This document shows, in pieces, positions 1,879-60,923 of a DNA stretch of 64,000 nucleotides. The notes beneath the pieces are model-generated. The model had not been told where the DNA came from. It ran no database searches and was given only the letters and a program-made list of their open reading frames with translations. The position numbers were made by a program, and so were the translations under genes. Numbering within the stretch: the stretch's first letter is position 1; each line of letters starts with the position of its first letter. Source of the stretch: a virus (taxonomy: Duplodnaviria > Heunggongvirae > Uroviricota > Caudoviricetes); the IMG/VR virus record IMGVR_UViG_3300029841_000001, positions 1 through 64,000 of that record; one strand, given 5' to 3'.

Positions 1879-3827
1879 TCTCCAATTAGCTGCATAAACT
1901 GTTCTTCATTGATAATTTGTACACCTAATGATTTTGCTTTCTTATTTTTACTAGAAGAAGATTCAATATCGTTGTTAATAAGAGCAAATGTCTTAGCAGA
2001 TACAGAACCAGACACTTTTCCACCATAAGATTCAATAACAGATTTTAGTTCATCTCTATTACTGTATTTCTCCAATGATCCTGTAATAACGAATGTTTTC
2101 CCTTGTAAGGTATTTTGAGTATGATTGGATTCATTAGGAATTTTAAATGTAAATTCTTTACTTAACTCAAAAACTTTATCCATGTATGTTATAGCAAATT
2201 TTTGAATATTATTACTTGCAACTACACCGATACCACCTACTTTAAGATTCCAAAAATATCCATATCCGCAAGAGAAACAATGATAAAATTTACCAAAGTT
2301 ATATTTAAAATGTTTAGCAATATCTTTACTTGCACTTTTACCAATCAGGGGTACGGAAAGTGCATAAATAAATCTGTCAAGTGTAGTTTCTCTGCTCTTT
2401 TCAATAGATTCTAATAATTTATCTACTGATTTTTTGCCGAATCCTTCAAGACTATACATTTTACCCTTATAATCAGATAGATGATAAATACTCTTAATGG
2501 AGTTTAACCAACCAAGAGAAATAAATTTCTCAAGTGTAGCTTCTGATAAATTATCCACATTTAAAGCATTTCGTGAAACTGCGTTGGAAAGTTTTCCTAA
2601 TAACTTACCTTGACAATCATCATTCATACACATAAGAACTTCTGAATCATTCTCTTTCACAATTTTAGTTTCTCCACCACAAATAGGACATTTATCTGGA
2701 ATTGTAATTTCTTCTCCGTAATTATTTTCAACTGAATCGCATTGTGGAATAATCATATTTGCTTTGTATAAATTACAAGTACATCCTTTTGTAAAACGAA
2801 ACTGTTTGAAGATACTTACATTATGAACTGATGCTCTATTAACAATCGTGCCATCAATTTCTACTGGTTCTGTTACAATTGTAGGTGTAAGAACTCCTGT
2901 TTTACCAATTGTCCATTCAATATTAATTAACTTTGTAGGATATGTTTCATCTTTCCATTTAAGAGCCATGCGACAATTTTCATGATGTGATGTACTTCCT
3001 AATTGCTTAGAAATCTCTTTATTATTTACTTCAAAAATAAGACCATCAACAGGATATTCGTAATACTCTGGCTTCATTTTTTCTACACATTTCGACACGT
3101 TAATAGATGTTGAAATATCTGTTAATCTTCGTACGGTTTCAAATCCAATACTATCAAGATAATCTAATTCTTCTGTTTTCCAAGTAAAAGACGGATGAAC
3201 CATTTCAAATACTACAAATGACAACTTTCTTTGTTTTAATATATTCAGATCGAGATTTCTAAGAGTTCCTGCCGCAAGATTTCGTGGATTAGAGTATGGG
3301 GTATCCAGAGTAGAATTAACTCTTTTAAATTCATTCCATGACATCACACATTCTCCACGCACTTCAAAAAAATGTTTATTTGGAATTGTCATTGGAATAT
3401 TATCAATAAACTTACACTGTTCTGTTACATCTTCTCCAATGATTCCATTGCCACGTGTAATTCCTTGAACAAATTTACCATCATTGTATCGAAGAACTAA
3501 TGTTAATCCATCTAGTTTATAAGAGCAATACCAATCGTAATCACGTAGAAATTTGATAATATCATTAATATCTTTTGTTTTATTTGCACTAAGCATTGGT
3601 TTACTATGAGTTACTTTTGTAAAACCATCAAGAACATAACCTTGTACTTTTTGTGTTGGTGATCCTGCGAGCGTAGTTCCCGTTTCTTTCTGAATCATCA
3701 TTAATTCATCATATAATGCATCGTATTCTTTATCACTCATAATAGGACTATCTTTCCCGTAGTATGCGTATGATGCCTTATTGAGTTCCTGGATTAACTT
3801 TTTCATTTTTTTAATATTATCTACCAT
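1875..3827 (-). CDS. ligA: NAD-dependent DNA ligase
   Basis: Adenylation motif CSYKLDGLTL (KxDG), Cys4 zinc finger (CPICGGE...CMNDDC), C-terminal BRCT-like segment (TFVITGSL...GGKVSGSVS), 650 aa. Confidence 0.85.
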   Translation of the reverse strand: MVDNIKKMKKLIQELNKASYAYYGKDSPIMSDKEYDALYDELMMIQKETGTTLAGSPTQKVQGYVLDGFTKVTHSKPMLSANKTKDINDIIKFLRDYDWYCSYKLDGLTLVLRYNDGKFVQGITRGNGIIGEDVTEQCKFIDNIPMTIPNKHFFEVRGECVMSWNEFKRVNSTLDTPYSNPRNLAAGTLRNLDLNILKQRKLSFVVFEMVHPSFTWKTEELDYLDSIGFETVRRLTDISTSINVSKCVEKMKPEYYEYPVDGLIFEVNNKEISKQLGSTSHHENCRMALKWKDETYPTKLINIEWTIGKTGVLTPTIVTEPVEIDGTIVNRASVHNVSIFKQFRFTKGCTCNLYKANMIIPQCDSVENNYGEEITIPDKCPICGGETKIVKENDSEVLMCMNDDCQGKLLGKLSNAVSRNALNVDNLSEATLEKFISLGWLNSIKSIYHLSDYKGKMYSLEGFGKKSVDKLLESIEKSRETTLDRFIYALSVPLIGKSASKDIAKHFKYNFGKFYHCFSCGYGYFWNLKVGGIGVVASNNIQKFAITYMDKVFELSKEFTFKIPNESNHTQNTLQGKTFVITGSLEKYSNRDELKSVIESYGGKVSGSVSAKTFALINNDIESSSSKNKKAKSLGVQIINEEQFMQLIGE

Positions 3828-38012: not shown

Positions 38013-39113
38013 TTATCTTAAATCTACATCATTTCGGGTTTCTCCATCAGAATAATAAATATTCCAATCATTAAATAAATTTATAAGCAAATCATTATCC
38101 CATTTGTCATATTCATTACAATGGGTAATTGCAATTGATTTTGTATTTCCAAAATCTCCAATATCATCAGAACATCTATTATATAGTTCTCTTAGATTAA
38201 GATGTCCATATCTTAATATATCTTGAAAAGGATTTGGAACATTTGTTTTATCATACATATATTCGTTAATAAAATTTTTATTGCATTCTGATGGAAATTT
38301 CCCTGCGCCATGTCTTGTTAAATAAGTACGAGATACATAACAAGTTTCAATATTTATATCATCATTCCATTCAATATTTTCAATTATTTTCTTGGGATTT
38401 TTAATTCCAGTGTTAGATGGGGTAAGATGTGGAAAATAATCAATATTATTTTGATCAAGTAAAAGCCCTTGTGCTGCTTCAAAAATAATATTGTCATACT
38501 GATTTAAGAAATATTCATCTGAAATACACAATGAATGGCTATTCATAAAATCCAAGTCTTCTAAGAAATGTTCAAATATACCATTATCAAAAAAGATTTT
38601 CAACCATTCGCCTGATAATTCAATGTCCTCCTTTTTAAATTGTTCCAAATAGTATTCTTTAATATTGTAATCTAAATCAGTTACACCAGCTCTATATCTT
38701 TTAATTGTCTCAAAAACCCCTAATCCACAACTACCATGTTTATTTTTACCACGGCTTTCCTCAACGATTTGATTAGCTATCATATCAAATGGAGTTGTTA
38801 TCATGCAATTTTGATTAATATATACATTTAGATTATGATTAAGTTTTACTAACTCATCATATTCTTGTTTAAAAATAATTGGATTAAGAATAAAATCCTC
38901 AGATAAATATGTACTTGCGTTATTAAATGTACCTGATCCAAAATGATGAAAGACATGTCTAATTGCAGTTGGCGTTGTTACAGTATGTCCTCTTTGCGCT
39001 CCACCATTTGAACACACAACAATGCTATTGGATTTTTGCGAAAAATAATCTGTCATCAAGCCCTTTCCTTCATCCCCAAAATTTGCTCCAATTACAATCT
39101 TAATGTCTTTCAT
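38013..39113 (-). CDS. Adenylosuccinate-synthetase-like enzyme (PurA family; PurZ candidate)
   Basis: GANFGDEGKGLMTD (PurA GDEGKGK P-loop) and NGGAQRGHTV (PurA GG.NAGHT). 366 aa is shorter than cellular PurA and within the phage PurZ range. Confidence 0.55.
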   Translation of the reverse strand: MKDIKIVIGANFGDEGKGLMTDYFSQKSNSIVVCSNGGAQRGHTVTTPTAIRHVFHHFGSGTFNNASTYLSEDFILNPIIFKQEYDELVKLNHNLNVYINQNCMITTPFDMIANQIVEESRGKNKHGSCGLGVFETIKRYRAGVTDLDYNIKEYYLEQFKKEDIELSGEWLKIFFDNGIFEHFLEDLDFMNSHSLCISDEYFLNQYDNIIFEAAQGLLLDQNNIDYFPHLTPSNTGIKNPKKIIENIEWNDDINIETCYVSRTYLTRHGAGKFPSECNKNFINEYMYDKTNVPNPFQDILRYGHLNLRELYNRCSDDIGDFGNTKSIAITHCNEYDKWDNDLLINLFNDWNIYYSDGETRNDVDLR

Positions 39114-57398: not shown

Positions 57399-57517
57399 CG
57401 AAAATGAGTACAAAAACTACGATGAAACATGACTTTCATGTATCTCTTATTTATACATTCTCCATATTCAGTTGTATTATTATTGGAATAATCGCTGAAA
57501 TGCTATGAATTAATATA

Positions 57518-57655
57518 GAAACTACTTGACTTTTAATGCCAGACCAACTAAACTAATTAATAGCATTTCTGGGATTCCCGTCCCTCATGCTAAATCATTA
57601 TGTAAGAGGTTCTTATCTCATTATGGTGCGCCAACACCGAGATAAGAGCCTTTTT
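57518..57655 (+). ncRNA. Candidate small RNA on the plus strand (promoter-like element plus intrinsic terminator)
   Basis: TTGACT-17 nt-TAAACT promoter-like element at ~57518-57546. Downstream is a stem (A)GGTTCTTATCTC / GAGATAAGAGCC(T) followed by TTTTTTATTTT at 57598-57655. There is no ORF, and it sits in a ~500-bp non-coding gap. Confidence 0.3.
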
Positions 57656-57838
57656 TATTTTGCCTTTCGACTTTCTTATAATATAGCAAACATTTGTTTG
57701 TGTCAATACTCATCAGAACATTTGTTTGCATTTTTTTAATTATACCAAAAATTAGGTATAAATCCTATATTTACCATTGTTTATGTTTATATGTTACTAC
57801 CTTAGTATAGGAAATCGAGCGGTAATTTTTGGAAATTT

Positions 57839-58120
57839 TTATTCCAATTTTTTGATTCCCTTCTCCGCAAATAGAATAGTTTTTTCTTTGTTTTTATCAT
57901 GTGTTTTTAATGATGAAACAATGATGTTTCTATCATACATTATCGGAAATCCTGTAGATATAGCTTTGATCCCATGTGTGATGCTAATTGGAATAGCTTC
58001 ACAATCAGGAGATCTGCTATCTAAATCAAATGAGGAAAATAACACATTCTCTCCACCGTTTTTCTTATACTCAGTTAATAATTTTATAGCTTCGTCTACA
58101 GACACAATCTTTCCATTCAT
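57839..58120 (-). CDS. Hypothetical protein
   Basis: 93-aa ORF with protein-like composition; preferred over the overlapping low-complexity plus-strand ORF 57777..58139. Confidence 0.4.
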   Translation of the reverse strand: MNGKIVSVDEAIKLLTEYKKNGGENVLFSSFDLDSRSPDCEAIPISITHGIKAISTGFPIMYDRNIIVSSLKTHDKNKEKTILFAEKGIKKLE

Positions 58121-58179
58121 GCCAATTCCTCCACCCTAATCTTCTTTTTGCCAAATAAGTTTGCAAGGAAACATTTCTC

Positions 58180-58330
58180 TACCAATTCTCTTTCCTCTTT
58201 ATTGTCAACATTTCCCCATTTTTCTACTACGTCACGCTTGTCAATGGTAAAAATCTGCTCTCGTGAACTACCACGAAGCTAAAGACTTCGTAGCTTCTTG
58301 GGACTATACTCTTATGAGCATTTCATTACC
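58180..58330 (-). ncRNA. Predicted omega-RNA (reRNA) region at the 3' end of tnpB / right end
   Basis: Inferred from TnpB biology: the guide RNA scaffold derives from the tnpB 3' end and RE, and this region contains the RE hairpin. Boundaries are not determinable from sequence alone. Confidence 0.3.
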
Positions 58331-59680
58331 AAGCTAATAACCGTGTTCCACAGTCTCTTATATTCATCGCTGCATTATAATCTCTATCGTTTTCATATCC
58401 ACAATCACAAGTATACCATCTGTCTGATAATTGCAAATCTTCTTTAATAGTGCCACAACAATGACACATTTTAGAAGACGGAAACCATTTATCAATCTTA
58501 ATAAATTGTTTTCCTTGTTCTTCCAACTTATATTTCAAAAAAGTCCTAAACATTCCAAATCCATTATCATGAACATTCTTTCCAAGTTTTAGACATTGAG
58601 CCATATTTCTTAAATCAATATCTTCTACTATAACAGCGTCATATTCGCCAGCTATTCTTCTCGATTCTTGGTGTAACCAATTAAGTCTTTGATTTGCAAT
58701 ATGTCTTTGTAATGTTGTAATTTTTTGTTTTTGTTTATACCAGTTTTTAGATTTAAGTTTTTTTCTTGACAATCCTCTTTGGATTTTTTTTAATTTTTCT
58801 TCTGATTTCCTATAATAGTGAGGATAATTGGCTTTCTTACCATTGCTATCAACATAGAAATCATGTTGAGAATAATCTAATCCAAGAACTTTTTCTGATT
58901 TCTTTGATTCAATATCAATTACATATTTAACACATAAACTGACATAAAATACACCCTTATTATCCATTGAAACAGTACAATTCTTAATAATTGAATTATT
59001 TGGCAATGGACGATGTTGTTTTACTTTAATCAATGTTTTAAGTTTTGGAATTTTTAACATAGAATTTTCCAATGTAATTAAATTCCATTTTTCACCTTGT
59101 GACTGATTATATGTTCTATATGAAAAATCATTGTTCTTAATACTCTTAAATCTTGGCATTCCTTTTAAGTCTCTGAAAGTAAGTTTAATTCCTAATGTCT
59201 TTTCTCTTTTTCGACTGCTTTTGGTATATGTCTTTTTATCATATTCTGTATTAAATTTTTTAATGGCATTATTAAAATCCATTTTTGCACTTGATAAACA
59301 CTGAGCATCAACATTTTTCATATAATCAAACTGTCTTGAAAAATCAGTATATTTACTCAAATGCAATTCCGATTTTTTAATTATTCCATTCTGATAACTA
59401 GACTCTTCGAGTTTTCTATATAACTCATCAACATACATATTGTATATTTTTCTTGCACAACCAAATGATTGTAAGAAAAACTCTTTCTGATCTTTAGTTG
59501 GAGCAATTTTAAACTTATAACCTCGATTAATGATAGTTTCCATCGTCTCACCACCTTTCTATGGATATTTTAGTTCCTACATATTTTTCTTTGATTTATT
59601 CTTCTTTATGTTGGTATATTCTCTATTCACATTCATTCACTAGGCTAAAGACCTAGTGGATTTCTGCTCTAGAAGTTTTA
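58260..59680 (-). mobile_element. IS200/IS605-family (IS1341-type, tnpB-only) insertion sequence with subterminal hairpins
   Basis: Intact TnpB ORF flanked by two hairpins in the same orientation with identical CTAAAGA loops and different, compensatory stems: ACGAAG/CTTCGT at 58273-58291 and CACTAGG/CCTAGTG at 59638-59658. This is typical of IS200/IS605 LE/RE structures. The element ends are approximate. Confidence 0.6.
58326..59543 (-). CDS. tnpB: TnpB (OrfB) RuvC-like RNA-guided nuclease/transposase-associated protein
   Basis: N-terminal OrfB-type HTH (GYKFKIAPTKDQKEFFLQSFGCARKIYN), C-terminal RuvC-III plus zinc ribbon CHCCGTIKED...CDCGYENDRDYNAAMNI; 405 aa. Confidence 0.75.
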   Translation of the reverse strand: METIINRGYKFKIAPTKDQKEFFLQSFGCARKIYNMYVDELYRKLEESSYQNGIIKKSELHLSKYTDFSRQFDYMKNVDAQCLSSAKMDFNNAIKKFNTEYDKKTYTKSSRKREKTLGIKLTFRDLKGMPRFKSIKNNDFSYRTYNQSQGEKWNLITLENSMLKIPKLKTLIKVKQHRPLPNNSIIKNCTVSMDNKGVFYVSLCVKYVIDIESKKSEKVLGLDYSQHDFYVDSNGKKANYPHYYRKSEEKLKKIQRGLSRKKLKSKNWYKQKQKITTLQRHIANQRLNWLHQESRRIAGEYDAVIVEDIDLRNMAQCLKLGKNVHDNGFGMFRTFLKYKLEEQGKQFIKIDKWFPSSKMCHCCGTIKEDLQLSDRWYTCDCGYENDRDYNAAMNIRDCGTRLLAW

Positions 59681-59689
59681 AATATTCTT

Positions 59690-59824
59690 TTTTTAGATTC
59701 ATATGCTTCTTTTCTATAAGCTAATGTTTGATTATAAAACAAATCTACAACATCCAAACGTCTTATTAATTTGTTCTTCTTGTTGTTTATTTGGATAAAT
59801 TCTATACTTATAAGCTTTTAACAT
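59690..59824 (-). pseudogene. N-terminal fragment of a second TnpB-like gene, frameshifted
   Basis: Reads MLKAYKYRIYPNKQQEEQINKTFGCCRFV, then after a +1 shift YNQTLAYRKEAYESKKR.., the canonical OrfB N-terminus. The frame runs directly into the LE hairpin of the intact element. No downstream remainder is found. Confidence 0.5.
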
Positions 59825-59864
59825 TACCTATCATCTTCTTTCTAACTTTTAACAACTTTAAGTT

Positions 59865-60161
59865 TTATTCTAACATAGGATATGGAAACATTATATTTCT
59901 CATTAATTCTCCTTCTTTTTCGTTTGACAAACATCCAATTACACCAAAGAAATCATTGTCTTGATATCCAATTTCTTTAGCTAATTCAATTAATTCTTTA
60001 CCTATCTTTTTCTTATTTCTTAAAGTAGGTTTATGGATCATTGTAGATTTATTGTAAATTGCAATAGTAACGCTATCTCCTGGCGCTGCATCAATCATTT
60101 TTTTTGCTTCTTCTTTAGAAACTGTTAAATATCCTTCAATCATGCTAATACTTCCTCCCAA
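59865..60161 (-). CDS. Small protein, possible MazE/AbrB-like partner of the MazF-like toxin
   Basis: 98 aa. GYLTVSKEEAKKMIDAAPGDSVTIAIYNKSTMIHKP loosely resembles a swapped-hairpin antitoxin segment. Overlaps the toxin gene by 22 nt, but lies downstream of the toxin rather than upstream. Confidence 0.3.
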   Translation of the reverse strand: MGGSISMIEGYLTVSKEEAKKMIDAAPGDSVTIAIYNKSTMIHKPTLRNKKKIGKELIELAKEIGYQDNDFFGVIGCLSNEKEGELMRNIMFPYPMLE

Positions 60162-60544
60162 TTAATATTTTCTCCAAAGAACATTGTATTCCAACATACT
60201 TTATTTACAATGTTTCTCTGTTCTTTATCTACAACGGCTCCAAGCTTTCTTTTGATCTCACATTTTTTATCTAGTGTATAAGGTTGCTCACCAAGAACCA
60301 TTGAGTATAAAGACAAACCAGTATCACTATTTGCACTGATACATCCATGAGTAGGAAGTCCAGTTCTTTTTATAATATGAGTCAAAGGCATGGCAATAAC
60401 TGTTGGAGCTGTAGTAGTCCCTTTTTCATTTCCCACAATCACATATGGACGTTTCTTTTTCTGCACAGAGCCAGATGGTGTTGTCATCTTAATCTCAGCT
60501 TCAATAATATCATATCTGTGATATTCATTTCTCATACCTTCCAT
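60140..60544 (-). CDS. MazF/PemK-family endoribonuclease toxin
   Basis: KRPYVIVGNE...VIAMPLTHIIKRTGLPTHGCISANSDTGLSLYSMVLGEQPYTLDKKCEIKRKLGAV matches the PemK/MazF pattern (RP..V..., PLT, TLDK); 134 aa. Confidence 0.6.
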   Translation of the reverse strand: MEGMRNEYHRYDIIEAEIKMTTPSGSVQKKKRPYVIVGNEKGTTTAPTVIAMPLTHIIKRTGLPTHGCISANSDTGLSLYSMVLGEQPYTLDKKCEIKRKLGAVVDKEQRNIVNKVCWNTMFFGENINWEEVLA

Positions 60545-60635
60545 ATATGTAACCTCCTCTCTGTTGTGGTATGTATTCCTTACCTTTGATAGTTCTTATT
60601 ATAGCGTGTACGCTAATTATTGTCAAGACTAATTA

Positions 60636-60664
60636 TTGCAAAAAATAAATATTTTTGATATAAT
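60636..60664 (+). promoter_or_regulatory. Sigma-70 consensus promoter for the XRE gene
   Basis: TTGCAA (60636-60641), 17-nt spacer, TATAAT (60659-60664); RBS GGAGGG 8 nt before the ATG at 60693. Confidence 0.6.
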
Positions 60665-60692
60665 CTATTCATCAAAAATTGGAGGGAAATTC

Positions 60693-60902
60693 ATGAAAGT
60701 AATTCTCAAAGAAACCCTTGAAAAGAAAGGTAAATCACAATATTGGCTTGCAAAAGAAACAGGAATAGCTGCATCTACTTTAAGCAATATGTGTTCAAAT
60801 AAAACAACTAAAGTAGATTTTGTTGTTCTCCAAAAAATATGTAATGCTTTAAAATGTGATATTACTGACATTCTTTCAACAGCAAAGGACGATGATAAAT
60901 AA
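60693..60902 (+). CDS. XRE-family (Cro/CI-type) helix-turn-helix transcriptional regulator
   Basis: MKVILKETLEKKGKSQYWLAKETGIAASTLSNMCSNKTTKVDFVVLQKICNALKCDITDIL is a classic HTH_XRE. The ORF track starts it at 60636, but the RBS supports the internal Met. Confidence 0.7.
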   Translation: MKVILKETLEKKGKSQYWLAKETGIAASTLSNMCSNKTTKVDFVVLQKICNALKCDITDILSTAKDDDK

Positions 60903-60923
60903 TCATCGCCCATACATATATCA

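Follow-up and report, generated by a model that had tools for sequence, protein, structure and literature searches.

A probable tnpA-deleted IS605-group insertion sequence with an intact tnpB and a predicted omega-RNA in a gut phage genome

Identification of the element

A 1415-bp segment on the minus strand of a Caudoviricetes genome (IMG/VR record IMGVR_UViG_3300029841_000001, whose positions 1 to 64,000 were analysed and are hereafter called the window) is an insertion sequence (IS) of the IS200/IS605 family. Spanning 58263-59677, it is, with a probability of about 0.85, a non-autonomous member of the IS605 group, that is, a tnpA-deleted element retaining both subterminal hairpins, an intact tnpB, and an omega-RNA whose coding region runs over the stop codon of tnpB into the right end. 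A first-pass annotation, made from the letters and open reading frames (ORFs) of the DNA, had placed an IS200/IS605-family element with an intact 405-amino-acid (aa) TnpB at 58260-59680; the family assignment is upheld by Pfam, by ISDra2 structures, and by the conserved RuvC and zinc residues, and those limits lie within 3 bases of the ones derived here. The features of the element are as follows, where L numbers denote related copies and contigs from IMG/VR, Logan/ENA, and JGI metagenomes, plus deposited phage and Clostridium records.

58263..59677, minus strand: whole insertion sequence (left end, tnpA remnant, tnpB, omega-RNA region, right end), delimited by copy alignments and flank divergence
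59678..59682, minus strand: pentanucleotide TTTAA in the left flank, resembling a target-adjacent motif (TAM), 19 nucleotides (nt) 5' of the left-end hairpin, from motif comparison between copies
59659..59677, minus strand: left-end linker AACTTCTAGAGCAGAAATC, with its outer limit ambiguous within 59670-59677
59638..59658, minus strand: left-end hairpin, sense CACTAGG TCTTTAG CCTAGTG, from folding and conservation in copies
59559..59609, minus strand (51 bp): tnpA remnant, comprising the ~9 initial codons (with ATA in place of the ATG start) fused to the final ~25 nt, from alignment with L004 and L019
58326..59543, minus strand: intact tnpB, 405 aa, from Pfam domains and ISDra2 TnpB structures
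58263..58367, minus strand: omega-RNA scaffold and right end, with helices at 58339-58355, 58297-58333 (enclosing 58306-58321), and 58271-58293, and the tail TAGTTCAC at 58270-58263
58271..58293, minus strand: right-end hairpin, core 58273-58291, sense CTACGAAG TCTTTAG CTTCGTGG, a conserved fold (helix 4 of the covariance model)
58243..58262, minus strand: flank with the predicted guide GAGAGCAGATTTTTACCATT, directly 3' of the invariant right end and different in each independent copy

Ends and mobility

The mobility of the element is seen in identical ends at differing sites and in more than 15 distinct right-end flanks. Every compared copy reads ...CYACGAAGTCTTYAGCTTCGTGGYAGTTCAC and then continues into unrelated DNA; the right end of the window copy (...GTAGTTCAC) has 58263 as its last base, the flanks of more than 15 independent insertions diverge exactly there, and the right end is therefore exact at this position. 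The copy of L003, located at another site (92% nucleotide identity), aligns to window 59667-58263, and those of L004/L005 (82%) align to 59671-59624 and 59562-58263.

The two same-orientation hairpins with a CTAAAGA loop, taken by the first-pass annotation as the element ends, are present as described (ACGAAG-CTAAAGA-CTTCGT at 58273-58291 and CACTAGG-CTAAAGA-CCTAGTG at 59638-59658) and are conserved in independent copies. The heptamer CTAAAGA occurs five times in the window, and a stem of at least 4 bp flanks it only in the two end hairpins. They form the sole loop-sharing pair among the 49 perfect hairpins of the window (7-nt loop, stem of at least 6 bp), and such a pair arose in just 2 of 50 shuffles; folded as isolated DNA, the two show only modest stability (z about -2 to -2.6). 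The stronger support is their conservation across copies rather than stability or shuffle statistics: both recur with compensatory changes in independent copies at other sites. The left-end stem is CACTATG/CATAGTG in other copies, where a single stem position has undergone a compensatory change (T-A to G-C), and the right-end hairpin shows both-side changes in 6 of its 8 pairs and holds a G-T/G-U wobble that pairs on the tnpB-sense strand only. No terminal inverted repeats joining the two ends are seen by inspection. The flanking TTTAA and GAGAG do not constitute a target-site duplication, and no second copy of the element occurs in the window.

At the left end, TTTAG is found 18-25 nt upstream of the hairpin in ten copies (L016, L019, L021, L027, L028, L035, L037, L042, L251, and L256), and TTTAA occupies the junction in all eight copies of a Clostridium sister group (50-65% aa identity). 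The window has TTTAA at 59682-59678, at the canonical 19-nt distance from the hairpin, which gives 58263-59677 for the element. Two element types (L019/L021 and L027/L028) are each found at two different sites with identical ends, so that the left-end linker belongs to the element. A left end at 59671, where the identity between the window and L004 starts, would leave a 13-nt linker; it was set aside in view of the TTTAR-like motifs at the canonical 18-19 nt in the window and L003, and some ambiguity persists. Before a shared inner core, ATTCGCACAATCC, the outer linker nucleotides are ACAAAC, ATAATT, AATCAAAA, or AGTGGA (L003, L016, L037, L256, and the window). These variable nucleotides travel with the element, in linkers of 18-43 nt, which suggests drift of the left cleavage site. 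In IS608 the cleavage motif pairs by rule with bases on the 5' side of the hairpin; a look by eye for such a rule here gave no consistent pattern.

TnpB

TnpB contains the Pfam domains HTH_OrfB_IS605 (PF12323; E 1.5e-10), OrfB_IS605 (PF01385; E 5.7e-20), and Cas12f1-like_TNB (PF07282; E 1.9e-23), and its closest structures are those of ISDra2 TnpB (8h1j and 8bf8/8exa; E about 5e-35), together with the TnpB-type 'transposase' 8iaz. The RuvC D/E/D residues, on which the first-pass annotation had made its claim depend, are present on alignment: D223, E307, and D388 correspond to D191, E278, and D361 of ISDra2 TnpB (the residue numbering of 8h1j is offset by 2). Across 27 homologues (52-93% identity) there is no variation at D223, E307, C360, C363, C379, or C381, and conservation of D388 is 90% or higher. 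The second zinc knuckle has the form C-D-C, as in 8iaz. Pairwise ratios of nonsynonymous to synonymous substitution (dN/dS) among six tnpB copies range from 0.06 to 0.19 (about 0.1), so that TnpB is under purifying selection. The protein cluster at 90% identity to which the window TnpB belongs comprises 403 sequences.

A different phage lineage, also widespread, has a TnpB with 89% identity to that of the window at one fixed site (L262-L271, always at 2501-3718; the variant is present in 129 index blocks), next to a gene for a product of at least 924 aa (running off the locus end, with a weak match to RNA-dependent RNA polymerase), a beta-CASP gene, and ClpP. These loci keep the omega-RNA helices and the TAGTTCAC end; their right-end hairpin is replaced (ATCATAGT...ATTATGAT), and a left-end hairpin is not recognisable. 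This copy may have been immobilised or domesticated.

Loss of tnpA

As the first-pass annotation had stated, no tnpA is present in the element or elsewhere in the 64-kb window, beyond the 51-bp remnant. Alignment of the window with the tnpA-bearing L004 and L019 reveals an internal deletion of ~370 bp. A Y1 TnpA of 138-147 aa is encoded between the left-end hairpin and tnpB in L004/L005, L019-L022, L253/L254, and L256 (Pfam Y1_Tnp, E 5e-35, for L020; a 138-aa ORF with the HIH motif for L004). L004 and L005 are two ~159-kb phage contigs from IMG dataset 3300045988, which also contains L002 and L003; in L003 there is a similar, larger tnpA deletion whose 3' junction is the same as that of the window. 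The first-pass classification as an IS1341-type arrangement thus stands for the gene content and fails for the origin: because the tnpA remnant persists, the window copy is a deletion derivative of an IS605-type element and not an original IS1341, and because the remnant is still recognisable and the nearest full-length relatives have both tnpA and tnpB, the derivative is recent. With tnpA deleted, the window copy could be mobilised only in trans.

In some copies an antisense gene for a 65-aa HTH_3/HTH_26 (Xre-like) protein lies between tnpA, or its remnant, and tnpB (L016, 2216-4281; L256, 1680-3790; and L037/L042, with a left-to-right-end distance of ~2045 nt); it is possibly cargo or a regulator of the element.

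Omega-RNA and predicted guide

Twenty-eight distinct right-end regions (window group plus Clostridium group) were aligned with MAFFT, and RNAalifold recovered helices 1-3, with compensatory changes, from this unfitted alignment. The helix at 58339-58355 is a hairpin within the last tnpB codons. An invariant CUUGG/CCAAG helix spans the tnpB stop codon and encloses the covarying hairpin at 58306-58321, whose strands read ATGCTC/GAGTAT, GTATTC/GAATAC, ATCTCC/GGAGAT, or GTCCTC/GAGGAC. A covariance model combining the RNAalifold helices with the right-end hairpin was searched in 79 sources; this search 3' of tnpB, a check put forward by the first-pass annotation, gave a single match in the window (58263-58392) with a covarying structure. 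In 32 model-aligned sequences, an alignment that was fitted to the model and leans towards the structure (a bias from which the RNAalifold/MAFFT result is free), standard pairs fill 96.5% of the cells as against 75% in shuffles, both-side changes occur in 18 of 26 pairs, and the observed values were reached by none of 500 shuffles. Pairing falls to 39-49% in slid-partner controls. Several G-U/G-T pairs lie on the tnpB-sense strand where the opposite strand would give A-C, and wobble pairs confined to the sense strand fit an RNA, or top-strand DNA, of that strand.

Miniature derivatives without tnpB (L027, L028, and L032) keep the left-end hairpin and the last ~105 nt, which suggests a functional RNA/right-end unit of about 58263-58367; it overlaps the last ~40 nt of tnpB. 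The first-pass annotation had predicted an omega-RNA at 58180-58330. Its proposal of a structured RNA with a flank-derived guide at the tnpB 3' end is retained, with an overlap of 58263-58330, and its position is revised, the scaffold being at 58263-~58367, partly inside tnpB, and 58117-58242 being the 3' part of a toxin gene. The guide itself is predicted at 58262-58243 and would derive from the flank. L040, L037, and L041, copies at other sites, match the window completely or almost completely in the right-end/omega-RNA region.

The miniatures (L027, 2071-2375; L028, 3107-3246; and L032, 439-638) come from activated-sludge and digester metagenomes and are flanked by TTTAG; they could give rise to guide RNAs while having no TnpB of their own.

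Empty site and target

The only similar deposited phage, MT835469 (L001; human faeces), matches window 57857-58260 and 60598-60918 and has, at the position of the right end, an intact gene for a 129-aa PemK/MazF-like protein (Pfam PemK_toxin, E 2.5e-19). In the tnpB sense, its uninterrupted site reads GGTTTTAG/GGGAACAAATTTTTAC (the slash marking the junction), and the corresponding sequence of the window is ...GTTCAC/GAGAGCAGATTTTTAC. The uninterrupted site GGTTTTAG/GRGAACARATTTTTAC is found within the PemK/MazF-like gene of 20 related phage contigs, namely L001 and 19 IMG/VR contigs, the latter reading GGTTTTAG/G[AG]GAACA[AG]ATTTTTAC. Because the vacant allele reads TTTAG/G..., the element was inserted directly 3' of TTTAG, and the flank beyond its right end corresponds to the protospacer of that allele; the right end puts TTCAC in place of TTTAG, so that the occupied site is without the motif.

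A search for the TAM and guide target, also suggested in the first-pass annotation, yielded TTTAG/TTTAA as the motif and a near-matching protospacer in the same 20 contigs, in which TTTAG is followed by a sequence with 1-3 mismatches to the guide in 16 nt. No other candidate target (self-target) was found in the window; in the paralogous toxin gene (60140-60544) the corresponding sequence is GTTCTTGGTGAGCAACC, which lacks the motif.

Flanks of the element

The two flanks of the element are gene fragments that come from different contexts.

58117..58262, minus strand: 3' fragment (47 codons) of mazF-A, the PemK/MazF-like toxin gene cut by the insertion; frame checked against the intact gene in L001
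59670..59824, minus strand: tnpB', a frameshifted N-terminal fragment of a different IS605-family tnpB in the left flank, from DNA matches and aa identity

The DNA of tnpB' matches annotated transposases in other phages, and its product shares 39% of aa with the TnpB of the element over residues 4-31 of the latter; intact homologues (L173/L176) are located elsewhere. The fragment contains MLKAYKYRIYPNKQQEEQINKTFGCCRFV..., and a 51-aa query from it matches 313 IMG/VR stretches, by which count the tnpB' lineage is very common in gut phage contigs. A TnpB carried by a phage, which the first-pass annotation called noteworthy as an active nuclease of a lytic phage, is not rare by this count and by the annotation of such genes as phage transposases.

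In relatives, a swap locus lies between a divergent Xre-type helix-turn-helix (HTH) gene (60636-60902) and conserved DNA from near 57731. It holds either cassette A, mazF-A plus a 93-aa gene (L001, 3986-4993; L103-L121), or cassette B, mazF-B plus a 98-aa gene (L124/L127, 3611-4700). The corresponding window spans are 57839-58262 and 59865-60902; the window has an intact cassette B (60140-60544 and 59865-60161), followed by the tnpB' fragment, the element, the remainder of mazF-A, and the 93-aa gene. The 93-aa and 98-aa partner ORFs have no Pfam match. A comparison with relatives lacking the insertion, proposed in the first-pass annotation as the way to define the ends, succeeds for the right flank, for which it gives an empty site, and not for the left, which is not the 5' half of the toxin gene; a clean empty site for both flanks was considered and rejected. 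Since the left flank is a fragment of another tnpB, the locus was rearranged after insertion.

The most probable origin of the left flank is a recombination event in which two element copies, each in its own phage variant, took part, or else a deletion between two copies; mazF-A would have housed one parental copy, and a tnpB' located downstream of cassette B the other. The same rearranged context is present in L002, L006, L023, L030, and L039. The parental arrangements were not found among the related contigs, nor was a phage with intact tnpB' at the window position, the fragment occurring only in the same-context copies.

In another phage context, an autonomous copy (L019/L020, 4364-5155) adjoins an HTH_3 gene and a PemK_toxin gene, and the HTH/PemK neighbourhood may be a tolerated or preferred landing zone.

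Points against the assignment and alternative readings

Several observations weigh against our assignment. The left-flank motif of the window is TTTAA, whereas its closest relatives have TTTAG (the motif is TTTGG in L003 and GTTAA in L004). The left-end linker varies by lineage in its outer 6-8 nt, and intact homologues of the flanking tnpB' read AAAACTTCT/TGC; because these 9 nt (AAAACTTCT) are common to flank and linker, the junction is ambiguous by 9 nt and the left boundary uncertain within 59670-59677. With the left flank not derived from the toxin gene, a simple single insertion fails to explain the locus. No perfect protospacer was found in IMG/VR phages, the best having one mismatch in 16 nt, at guide position 5. 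A search of 57500-60500 against Rfam (E up to 10) returned no omega-RNA family, just a chance mir-96 match outside the element. The nuclease activity of TnpB, finally, which the first-pass annotation took as given, is predicted from conservation and from homology to ISDra2 TnpB.

Some of these points would also suit an immobile, decaying relic, in which TnpB and its RNA are non-functional and the hairpins are leftovers. The deleted tnpA, the TTTAA in the left flank, the rearranged locus, and the loss of the closing pair of the left-end stem (GTGA, not GTGG) could be read in this way. However, TTTAA is the motif of the sister group, the ORF is full-length with all catalytic and zinc residues kept, dN/dS among copies is about 0.1, and the omega-RNA region recurs (nearly) unchanged in L040, L037, and L041 at other sites. 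We regard a relic as very unlikely. The intact RuvC triad and full-length protein argue likewise against a nuclease-dead, TldR-like RNA-guided repressor, although phage-encoded TldR regulators exist (bioRxiv 10.1101/2023.11.30.569447). An IStron, in which an IS is combined with a group I intron, might be considered because IStrons have been described in the genus of the Clostridium relatives (PMC13565253), but the Rfam search above gave no group I intron or other family (the chance microRNA match aside), and the left end is too short, with only about 95 nt from the left-end hairpin to tnpB. Almost no credence can be given to either of these two readings.

Proposed mechanism

For the tnpA-deleted IS605-group element, the likely course of events can be drawn from the established biology of IS608 and ISDra2 (Karvelis 2021, PMC8612924; Meers 2023, PMC10055086; review, PMC13565253). 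A Y1 TnpA acting in trans, encoded by an autonomous copy that a related phage or the host carries, would bind both hairpins on the tnpB-sense strand, excise the element as single-stranded DNA, and insert it 3' of TTTAG. In the present case the insertion would have occurred after TTTAG within the Gly codon of ...MVLG/EQIF... in the phage PemK/MazF-like gene. The last ~16-20 nt of the omega-RNA would be copied from the flank (GAGAGCAGATTTTTAC...), and the TnpB-omega-RNA complex would cut element-free TTTAG-GAGAGCAG... sites, after which recombination with an occupied copy would restore the element (homing/retention). The occupied site would be protected, as the right end gives TTCAC instead of TTTAG.

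It is conceivable that the element also serves the phage, as an RNA-guided homing or exclusion nuclease directed at sibling phages with intact mazF-A during co-infection; the siblings would be excluded or converted to the IS-bearing allele, as by the free-standing homing endonucleases of T-even phages. The 20 related contigs with TTTAG and a protospacer 1-3 mismatches from the guide, the shared site and flanks in L002, L006, L023, L030, and L039, and the close TnpB variant fixed at a single site in another widespread lineage are all compatible with such a role, and an analogy with phage homing endonucleases has been discussed (PMC13565253). From the side of the phage, however, this equals ordinary selfish retention, and there is no sign here of a benefit to the phage; the guide is merely the flank of the landing site, no perfect target was found, and the nearest has a mismatch in the TAM-proximal part of the guide. 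We therefore consider this role unlikely. A broader version, in which element copies in ~130-180-kb gut phages act as homing/exclusion nucleases against the intact toxin allele and as portable homology that shuffles toxin cassettes, is put forward tentatively and we doubt it to a similar degree; if true, the window would represent a recombinant, with one copy of the element linking cassette B (mazF-B and the 98-aa gene) to a truncated cassette A (mazF-A and the 93-aa gene).

Comparison with known systems

The element shares with IS608 of Helicobacter pylori and ISDra2 of Deinococcus radiodurans the one-strand subterminal hairpins without terminal inverted repeats or target duplication, the insertion 3' of a short T-rich motif, and cleavage sites outside the hairpins, ~19 nt to the 5' side of the left-end one and 8-10 nt to the 3' side of the right-end one. 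Also in common are tnpA upstream of tnpB (here in the autonomous relatives), a TnpB with the RuvC D/E/D triad and a zinc finger, and an omega-RNA that covers the 3' end of tnpB together with the right end and takes its guide from the flank. It differs from both in the deletion of tnpA and in its host replicon, a ~150-kb gut phage. The motif is TTTAG/TTTAA here, TTGAT in ISDra2, and TTAC in IS608. In comparison with ISDra2 TnpB, to which it aligns only at E about 5e-35, the window TnpB has CxC instead of CxxC in the second zinc knuckle. As in the IS1341 group, tnpB is the sole intact gene between the ends, and the Clostridium copies L050-L054 and L083 are likewise tnpB-only; unlike that group, the window copy holds a tnpA remnant and its nearest full-length relatives have tnpA and tnpB.

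Phage chromosomes with an IS200/IS605-type tnpB are on record, for example that of cyanophage A-1(L) (bioRxiv 10.64898/2026.02.14.705889), and transposases are annotated in Bacillus phages IEBH/250, Clostridium phage c-st, Lactobacillus phage Semele, and Thermus phage YS40_Isch. In the present case the ends, target motif, guide, and empty site are all directly readable from related phages, which is not known to have been done for the recorded ones. Because its architecture, motif, guide origin, and protein fit the IS605/TnpB model and phage tnpB is very common, the element is a well-preserved example of a common, already understood mobile element with little conceptual novelty. It is an unusually complete natural example, since the ends, the TAM (TTTAR), the covarying omega-RNA, and the guide can be read from metagenomic relatives alone, with twenty unoccupied target sites in sibling phages and one element in autonomous, tnpA-deleted, cargo-bearing, and miniature forms. 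It provides a candidate nuclease that is compact (405 aa), has a T-rich TAM, comes with a guide scaffold already delimited, and is ready to test, and a concrete phage system for asking about TnpB homing between co-infecting viruses.

Host phage

The window is a replication and nucleotide-metabolism module encoding NAD ligase, an exoV/Dda-like helicase, DNA polymerase, RecJ, primase, DnaB, RNA ligase, and a methyltransferase, and its 25 ORFs with a length of 250 aa or more all lie on the minus strand. No tRNA genes were found in the 64 kb, and no integrase was seen in these 64 kb of the ~150-kb gut phage genome; the lytic lifestyle named in the first-pass annotation goes beyond these data. The host is probably a member of the Clostridia. 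The exact right-end pattern gave no match in species-representative genomes; a protein-based scan of genomes gave relatives of at most 82% identity, with 80% or more reached only in contigs of metagenome-assembled genomes.

Apart from the element, the 366-aa ORF at 38013-39113 (minus strand) resembles adenylosuccinate synthetase (phrog_1211, '2-aminooxy adenylosuccinate synthetase', E 2.7e-63; Pfam Adenylsucc_synt, E 6e-35). A PDB search with it gave only cellular PurA (E about 1e-15), and the neighbouring ORFs showed no match to DatZ or MazZ. The ORF may encode PurZ, in which case the DNA of the phage would be expected to contain 2-aminoadenine (Z).

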